Assembly: GCF_003334815.1 (NCBI RefSeq)
Contig: NZ_QOWO01000007.1
Length of the DNA stretch: 64,000 nucleotides
DNA from: Escherichia coli
Lineage (GTDB): Bacteria > Pseudomonadota > Gammaproteobacteria > Enterobacterales > Enterobacteriaceae
Reading direction: 5' to 3' (one strand)
Of the stretch, positions 23,586-23,629 are shown piece after piece. Position 1 is the first letter of the stretch; the number at the start of each line of letters is the position of its first letter. The notes below the pieces were generated by a model, which did not search any database, was not told the DNA's origin, and saw only the letters and a list, made by a program, of their open reading frames with translations. Made by a program: the position numbers and the translations under genes.

Positions 23586-23629
23586 ATACAGGGGGAAGGC
23601 ATTCCCCCAGGATAATACAAGGAACAATA

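Follow-up and report, generated by a model that had tools for sequence, protein, structure and literature searches.

The 44-nt spacer between ycjV and ompG, in the ycj sugar-utilisation operon of Escherichia coli, contains a hairpin which, on comparative grounds, is a real, selected and previously unannotated cis-element of the ycj-ompG operon. What the orthologous spacers have in common is a stem-loop where ycjV ends, and the U-tract that may follow it appears to have been gained and lost. We would give even chances to its marking the 3' boundary of the ycjM-V mRNA, acting as a leaky terminator in species with a U-tract and mainly as a barrier to exonucleases in E. coli.

The ycjV-ompG spacer and its hairpin in E. 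coli

The whole stretch of E. coli DNA analysed, 64,000 nucleotides long and called here the window, contains the operon ycjMNOPQRSTUV-ompG followed by the convergent gene ycjW. The features that concern us are the following (ycjT, ycjU and ycjV from the ORF list, ompG from the ORF list and homology):

19566-21833: ycjT
21830-22489: ycjU
22503-23585, plus strand: ycjV, ABC-transporter ATPase, 360 aa, intact
23591-23597, plus strand: 5' arm of the hairpin, GGGGGAA, 5 nt past the ycjV stop
23598-23601, plus strand: tetraloop, GGCA, variable among relatives
23602-23608, plus strand: 3' arm of the hairpin, TTCCCCC
23609-23617, plus strand: U-poor tail, AGGATAATA
23618-23632, plus strand: ompG Shine-Dalgarno AAGGAA (23618-23623) and start codon ATG (23630-23632)
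23630-24535, plus strand: ompG, monomeric porin, 301 aa, distal gene of the operon
24646-25644, minus strand: ycjW, convergent repressor gene (LacI family)

The last transporter gene of the ycjM-V segment is ycjV, which ends with a TAA stop at 23583-23585 and codes for a product 99-100% identical to the E. coli ABC transporter ATP-binding protein. The spacer that follows (23586-23629) reads ATACA-GGGGGAA-GGCA-TTCCCCC-AGGATAATACAAGGAACAATA, and the Shine-Dalgarno and start motif ACAAGGAA is kept in many relatives. This is the longest junction of the operon, the others being at most 30 nt or overlapping, and within the operon there is room for a hairpin of this size only here. The RefSeq annotation of the spacer in five E. 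coli records gives just the two coding sequences, with no hairpin feature.

The coordinates, the ORFs and the fold all agree with the original prediction of a hairpin GGGGGAA-ggca-TTCCCCC at 23591-23608 inside this 44-bp spacer, its stem having 7 bp, 5 of them G-C. The same prediction set the stem 20 nt upstream of the ompG Shine-Dalgarno, and this distance needs correction, the actual gap being 9 nt to the Shine-Dalgarno and 21 nt to the ATG. The minimum free energy fold of the spacer consists of the hairpin alone, at -13.6 kcal/mol (z = -3.4, with 0 of 200 dinucleotide shuffles as good), and our own hairpin scorer gave z = -4.7 (p = 0.003). The hairpin persists when a 101-nt context is folded, and the Shine-Dalgarno is unpaired in the predicted fold. 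The Rfam covariance models had no match at 23586-23629, even at E values up to 10. A REP/BIME element was considered and rejected, the 18-mer of the hairpin being single-copy in the window, the 81-nt region around it being found in one copy in 4990 of 5426 complete E. coli genomes, and neither an Rfam nor a naRNA4-like match falling at the hairpin.

In its stem-loop (GC-rich, about 5-12 bp, short loop) the E. coli hairpin has the form of an intrinsic terminator. Its tail, AGGATAAT, has 2 T in the next 8 nt on the plus strand (tail score 0.15), which falls short of the U-rich tract of about 7-8 nt expected directly past the stem, confirms the predicted lack of a T-run and is what sets this hairpin apart from a canonical intrinsic terminator; a terminator scan made no plus-strand call here. 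Without the U-tract, intrinsic termination by the E. coli stem-loop is unlikely to be efficient.

Several variants of the locus are recorded here as observations in their own right. K-12 MG1655 (locus L068) has lost 1 bp from a G-run of ycjV (window ~23452-23457) and carries the RefSeq label 'frameshifted', the frameshift leading to a stop ~116 nt ahead of the normal one; ycjV of the window strain is intact. The K-12 frameshift leaves ~160 nt untranslated ahead of ompG, and Rho polarity might increase there. In E. coli FDAARGOS_943 (L067, 1464-1544) an IS4-like ISEc60 lies upstream of the hairpin and uidR adjoins; homology to the window starts in the hairpin loop, ~20-30 nt past the transposase CDS, so that the 5' arm and the entire upstream ycj operon are lost and ompG keeps the 3' arm only. 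In E. coli HH194M ycjV is split by IS1A, and its 3' part, annotated as 'TOBE domain-containing protein', lies just upstream of the hairpin. At the other end of ompG, the 110-nt convergent spacer before ycjW carries, at 24550-24624, paired REP-like palindromes (GCCGGATGCGGCG... and ...GCATCGCATCTGGC; fold -45.9 kcal/mol), with a sub-threshold naRNA4/REP Rfam match at 24591-24656 on the minus strand (35.9 bits against a gathering score of 59.5). This pair probably protects the operon mRNA at its distal 3' end.

Conservation of the stem and variation of the tail

We compared 62 loci with OmpG homologues (57-99% identity), one genome per species. In every locus long enough to show it, ycjV lies directly upstream of ompG, and a strong hairpin follows the ycjV stop in all 59 spacers analysed, with complementarity of the arms kept in 59/59. 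These come from the Enterobacteriaceae plus Budvicia, about 20 genera altogether. The hairpins start 3-27 nt past the ycjV stop, have energies of -7.6 to -20 kcal/mol and lie 21-57 nt from the ompG ATG, a distance that includes the Shine-Dalgarno. The hairpin is also present in contigs of C. koseri and S. enterica that were fetched separately. A sixty-first spacer (L007), kept outside these counts, has a GGGGGG/CCCCCC stem with a 12-nt loop, seen in the full fold only. The best hairpin beats 95% of the dinucleotide shuffles of its own spacer in 52 of the 55 distinct spacers (median z = -4.1), and the three that do not reach this level are two G-run/C-run sequences and L007, the loop of which is too long for the scorer. 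The stems differ in sequence from one lineage to another:

Escherichia: GGGGGAA/TTCCCCC
Citrobacter freundii group: GGGGGAT/ATCCCCC and GGGGGG/CCCCCC
Buttiauxella, Superficieibacter, Trabulsiella: (G)CCGGGAA/TTCCCGG(C)
Enterobacter, Lelliottia, Leclercia: GCCGGAAAT/ATTTCCGGT
Salmonella arizonae: CCGGAGGAA/TTTCTCCGG
Siccibacter: CGGAGCC/GGCTCCG
Atlantibacter: GCAAAGGCAGG/CTTGCCTTTGC

The tetraloops include GTGA in E. whittamii and GAAA, GCAA and GCGA in Enterobacter and Leclercia.

When the spacers or hairpins are aligned by sequence alone with MAFFT, the G/C runs shift by 1-2 columns and Escherichia falls out of register with Enterobacter, so that such alignments are unusable for counting (RNAalifold on the MAFFT alignment retrieved 3 pairs only). 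We therefore used gapless, loop-anchored subsets together with the folding of each sequence and its shuffles. The gapless alignments are anchored on the predicted hairpin and loop of each sequence, which favours pairing, and the sequences are phylogenetically related, so that the shuffle counts given here should not be read as probabilities. In a gapless alignment of 23 sequences without E. coli, 98% of the cells were paired and 8 of the 9 pairs had changes on both sides, that is, compensatory changes; none of 500 shuffles reached any of five measures, and slid registers gave 25-63% of paired cells. The second gapless alignment included E. coli with three of its variants, E. whittamii, Citrobacter, Salmonella, Superficieibacter and Buttiauxella. 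Both-side changes appeared here at 9/9 pairs (for example GG...CC versus CC...GG), the 7 pairs of the E. coli stem were essentially always paired, and the covariation score was 0.579 versus 0.261 +/- 0.035 in the shuffles (0/500). A covariance model built from 23 sequences and run over all loci recovered most of the plus-strand hairpins, together with minus-strand and unrelated matches. At the Escherichia hairpins it was non-significant (in the window only the minus strand, E = 0.33; in L002 and L003 the plus strand, E = 1-2.3), and the covariance-model alignment was left out of the counting.

Within Escherichia the stem has been kept as the rest of the spacer changed. A comparison of E. coli with E. 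whittamii shows differences at 0 of 14 stem positions and at no fewer than 9 of 19 other spacer positions outside the Shine-Dalgarno (Fisher p = 0.004), and the two spacers also differ by a 6-nt indel. Five variant E. coli genomes were inspected, and the 3'-arm variants found in them (TTCTCCC, TTCTCCT and TTCCCTC) are all C>T changes.

These C>T changes give G.U pairs in the sense RNA, and A.C mismatches in an antisense RNA or a DNA cruciform. Over the orthologues, the plus-strand version is the more stable one in 36 of 50 distinct hairpins and the minus-strand version in 8 (Wilcoxon p = 1e-5); G.U accounts for 34 of 413 stem pairs on the plus strand; GNRA tetraloops number 8 of 30 on the plus strand and 0 on the minus strand; and the T-runs, where present, are on the plus strand, with no T-run on the opposite side. 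Because wobbles, GNRA loops, stability and T-runs all favour the plus strand, we conclude that the element acts as RNA in the operon transcript.

In the tail, variation follows lineage. Of the 59 spacers, 26 have a tail score of at least 3, 11 score 2-3 and 22 score below 2. The first group includes Enterobacter, Lelliottia, Leclercia, Huaxiibacter, Silvania, Siccibacter and some others, with the stem followed by T5-T8, so that the hairpin has the canonical form of an intrinsic terminator ~30 nt ahead of the ompG ATG. Intermediate tails are, for example, TTCTTAG in Buttiauxella and TTTACC in Superficieibacter. Poor tails, or none, were found in Escherichia, the C. freundii group, C. amalonaticus, Salmonella arizonae/diarizonae and Atlantibacter, the Escherichia scores (0.09-0.15) being among the lowest of the 59 orthologues and the Escherichia spacer being ~20 nt shorter than any other.

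Two genera mark the limits of the element. In Cronobacter sakazakii the operon lacks ompG, and ycjV runs straight into a 12-bp hairpin that it has in common with the convergent ycjW. The 49-nt ycjV/ycjW spacer (L069, 3584-3632) contains the hairpin AATAAGCTCCGC-gtcag-GCGGAGCTTATT and folds at -22.3 kcal/mol; this is likely a bidirectional terminator. In Rahnella perminowiae (L071, 3590-3687) ycjV is followed, after a 98-nt AT-rich spacer, by a longer and more distant gene of the OmpG family (336 aa). Folding of this spacer gave no stable hairpin (minimum free energy -6.4), the sole exception found, and the OmpG-like gene may be transcribed from a promoter of its own. It follows that ycjV and an OmpG-like gene can be neighbours without the element, which is characteristic of the Enterobacteriaceae (and, weakly, of Budvicia) and not universal.

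Some spacers and records have peculiarities of their own. In the Citrobacter freundii group (L011, L012 and L057; ~2950-2985) a possible second hairpin, CCCCAA-gcc-TTGGGG followed by CATTTTT, lies downstream of the G6/C6 hairpin and overlaps its 3' arm in an arrangement like that of antiterminator and terminator; it is absent in Escherichia and lies outside the minimum free energy fold. Citrobacter amalonaticus S646 has a spacer of 211 nt (L005, ~2790-2935), with a highly structured insertion of ~140 nt upstream of the conserved hairpin and a whole-spacer minimum free energy of -70.5, and the insertion is perhaps a small element, mobile or REP-like. A 'Citrobacter' MAG and 'Pseudocitrobacter vendiensis' (L003 and L004) carry ycjV-ompG 98-99% identical to E. 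coli, and a contig of 'Chryseobacterium sp. 18061' (L044) bears an enterobacterial ycj-ompG locus. The labels of these three records are at odds with their sequence, and contamination or mislabelling is likely.

Transcription of ompG and the possible role of the hairpin

Deletion of ycjW raises ompG mRNA together with that of ycjM, ycjT and ycjU, and the ChIP-seq peaks of YcjW, with a 14-nt palindromic motif that has a central CG, lie upstream of ycjM and between ycjT and ycjU (PMC6599011). Since ompG is derepressed together with the operon, the hairpin must be read through, at least in part. A promoter of its own for ompG was considered and rejected. The promoter scan found no sigma-70-like site on the plus strand within ycjV, and the 21-57 nt past the hairpin leave no room for a promoter, from which it follows that ompG is transcribed through the hairpin. 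The basal silence of OmpG is explained by YcjW repression, and the hairpin is not its main cause; the suggestion that it contributes to low basal expression of OmpG is not supported. Any effect that the hairpin may have on ompG would modulate the derepressed level and not the basal one. The further proposal, that the hairpin modulates read-through or mRNA stability rather than terminating transcription, fits the missing U-tract, the co-derepression and the selection on the sense-strand RNA structure, and such a role is our best guess. The supplements of three published studies of 3' ends or decay have no entry for ycjV, ycjU or ompG at the spacer, the operon being repressed under the conditions used, and the literature searched on ompG with terminator, Term-seq or Rho had nothing on the ycjV-ompG spacer. 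It is because of this repression in standard cultures that mapped 3' ends, half-lives and termination measurements for the site were not found.

On the simplest reading the hairpin would mark where the ycjM-V mRNA has its 3' boundary. The comparison shows the structure itself, its position past ycjV, its conservation through compensatory changes, the strand it belongs to and which lineages have a U-tract. In the relatives with a U-tract the hairpin would work as a leaky internal intrinsic terminator, and only part of the operon transcripts would reach ompG. In Escherichia, the C. freundii group, Atlantibacter and Salmonella arizonae/diarizonae, where the U-tract is weak or absent, RNA polymerase would read through, and the hairpin would chiefly hold back 3'-5' exonucleases (PNPase, RNase II), in the manner of the intercistronic malE-malF structure. 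After an endonucleolytic cleavage or a termination further downstream, decay of the ompG segment would halt at the hairpin and the mRNA of the upstream transporter and enzyme genes would survive. From this we infer, for termination in the relatives and for exonuclease blocking in E. coli alike, a shifted ompG:ycjV ratio, with ompG mRNA expected to be lower than, and partly uncoupled from, that of the upstream genes. We assume, plausibly, that having less porin mRNA relative to transporter mRNA is an advantage.

The hairpin might also sense translation, which we regard as rather improbable. In such an attenuator, a ribosome following close behind RNA polymerase at the end of ycjV would block the stem and let transcription continue into ompG, and poor translation of ycjV would allow the stem to form, so that the transcript would end there or be trimmed back to the stem. 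The suggestion rests on the closeness of the stem, which starts 5 nt past the ycjV stop in E. coli (3-27 nt in relatives). If it were true, the supply of porin would be tied to active synthesis of the transporter, and the gain and loss of the U-tract would represent a natural series in which one site switches between intrinsic termination and an exonuclease barrier.

Alternatively, the hairpin could be what is left of an intrinsic terminator that once closed ycjV, lost its U-tract in Escherichia and has no function now. This is unlikely, in spite of some support. Many genera have a strong U-tract and Escherichia has none, ycjV of Cronobacter ends in a plain terminator, and the shortness of the Escherichia spacer suggests that sequence past the stem has been deleted. 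Decay would be expected of a neutral relic, yet the stem is perfect in E. coli, E. whittamii and other Escherichia in which loop and flanks diverge, the variants from the five E. coli genomes preserve pairing through wobbles, and in the C. freundii group, where the U-tract is likewise missing, a stem of another sequence is kept and is just as strong.

We find it similarly improbable, on a par with translation sensing, that the hairpin protects a 5' end as in papBA, with RNase E cutting after the ycjV stop and the hairpin capping the processed ompG mRNA, which would raise ompG expression. Hairpins are known to protect 5' ends left by RNase E (PMC5927463), and the E. coli hairpin is located in the ompG leader and preceded by an A/U-rich single-stranded stretch, UAAAUACA. 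However, the T5-T8 found after the hairpin in 26 of 59 relatives suits a terminator or a 3' end and not a 5' cap, the hairpin stays near the ycjV stop when its distance to the ATG varies, and in Cronobacter a hairpin follows ycjV in the complete absence of ompG.

A purely translational role, in which the stem-loop would limit 30S standby binding or the coupling with ycjV and so tune OmpG with no change in its mRNA, appears very unlikely. The Escherichia stem ends at -22 from the ATG, where contact with the 30S subunit reaches its limit, and ribosomes that terminate on the ycjV stop codon, 5 nt ahead of the stem, would need to unfold it. Against this, the distance to the Shine-Dalgarno and ATG is not conserved (21-57 nt), the Shine-Dalgarno is unpaired in the predicted fold and the U-tracts of the relatives are left unexplained.

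Termination on the minus strand, which would keep the ycj operon free of antisense transcripts such as those reading from ycjW through ompG, has hardly any likelihood. A simple scan does call the minus strand terminator-like, with GGGGGAATGCCTTCCCCC followed by TGTATTTAGC, the covariance model is slightly better on this strand for E. coli, at its non-significant E value, and antisense transcripts in ompG exist (PMC7815308 supplement). The G.U pairs, GNRA loops, greater stability and T-tracts of the relatives are nevertheless all on the plus strand, and the antisense 3' end that has been mapped, at MG1655 coordinate 1382709 on the minus strand (PMC7815308 supplement, file 2), falls within ompG and not in the spacer. 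Judging from the design of that study, this 3' end would be bicyclomycin-sensitive (Rho-dependent), and it presumably represents ycjW read-through stopped by Rho inside ompG.

Just as improbable is a palindrome acting at the DNA level (a cruciform or an operator such as a YcjW site, suggested by the perfect 7-bp inverted repeat and the nearby LacI-family repressor gene) or a chance repeat, given that complementarity is conserved and sequence is not, that the G.U variants would be A.C mismatches in a cruciform and that the shuffle tests and the recurrence in 59/59 orthologues exclude chance. A YcjW operator in particular was rejected, its ChIP-seq peaks being elsewhere, the centre of the hairpin being GGCA versus the central CG of the operator, and the sequence varying among species that keep ycjW.

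Comparison with known intra-operon structures

Taken as a 3' boundary of the ycjM-V mRNA, the hairpin has its nearest counterpart in malE-malF. Protective 3' structures of this mechanism within operons are widespread and conserved in E. coli (PMC5927463). The ycjV-ompG hairpin has two of the characters expected of such structures, a position past the upstream cistron in a polycistronic RNA and evolutionary conservation. Like malE-malF it is a stable stem-loop just past the upstream cistron of a sugar-uptake operon, conserved across enterobacteria, and upstream mRNA would be expected to exceed downstream mRNA. They differ in that malE-malF is made of REP sequences, whereas the ycjV-ompG hairpin is unique and single-copy. 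Moreover, most of the protective structures in that survey (PMC5927463) are inside coding regions, and the hairpin described here is intergenic.

Hairpins with terminator-like energies and no U-tract are normal steady-state 3' ends of Rho-terminated transcripts, and it has been proposed that sites switch between mechanisms in evolution through their U content (PMC6061677). The E. coli hairpin resembles these 3'-end stem-loops in stem length, loop length, energy and missing U-tract, and T5-T8 in Enterobacter versus none in Escherichia resembles the proposed switch. However, the published stem-loops end transcription units, with Rho acting downstream, and here ompG starts 21 nt past the hairpin; since ompG is translated from that point on, Rho would have little room unless ompG were poorly translated. 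A leaky internal terminator, an intra-operon attenuator that sets discoordinate expression, is what the Enterobacter, Lelliottia, Leclercia and Siccibacter copies, among others, look like, with their GC-rich stem and T5-T8 about 30 nt before ompG and no room for a promoter. The E. coli copy differs from it in having no U-tract and in the co-derepression of ompG with the operon. With the papBA type the likeness is that of an intercistronic hairpin after an A/U-rich single-stranded stretch, and the difference is that the T-tracts of the relatives and the Cronobacter operon without ompG tie the hairpin to the 3' end of the upstream gene.

The hairpin is thus an ordinary kind of intra-operon element with a neat comparative pattern, and the larger picture is unchanged by it. 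It predicts that porin mRNA would be set apart from the mRNA of the transporter and the enzymes, which bears on work on OmpG expression and on the kojibiose/YcjW regulon. Furthermore, the orthologous series, U-rich in Enterobacter, intermediate in Buttiauxella and Superficieibacter and U-less in Escherichia, would provide a compact natural example of the proposed switch from terminator to protective hairpin.
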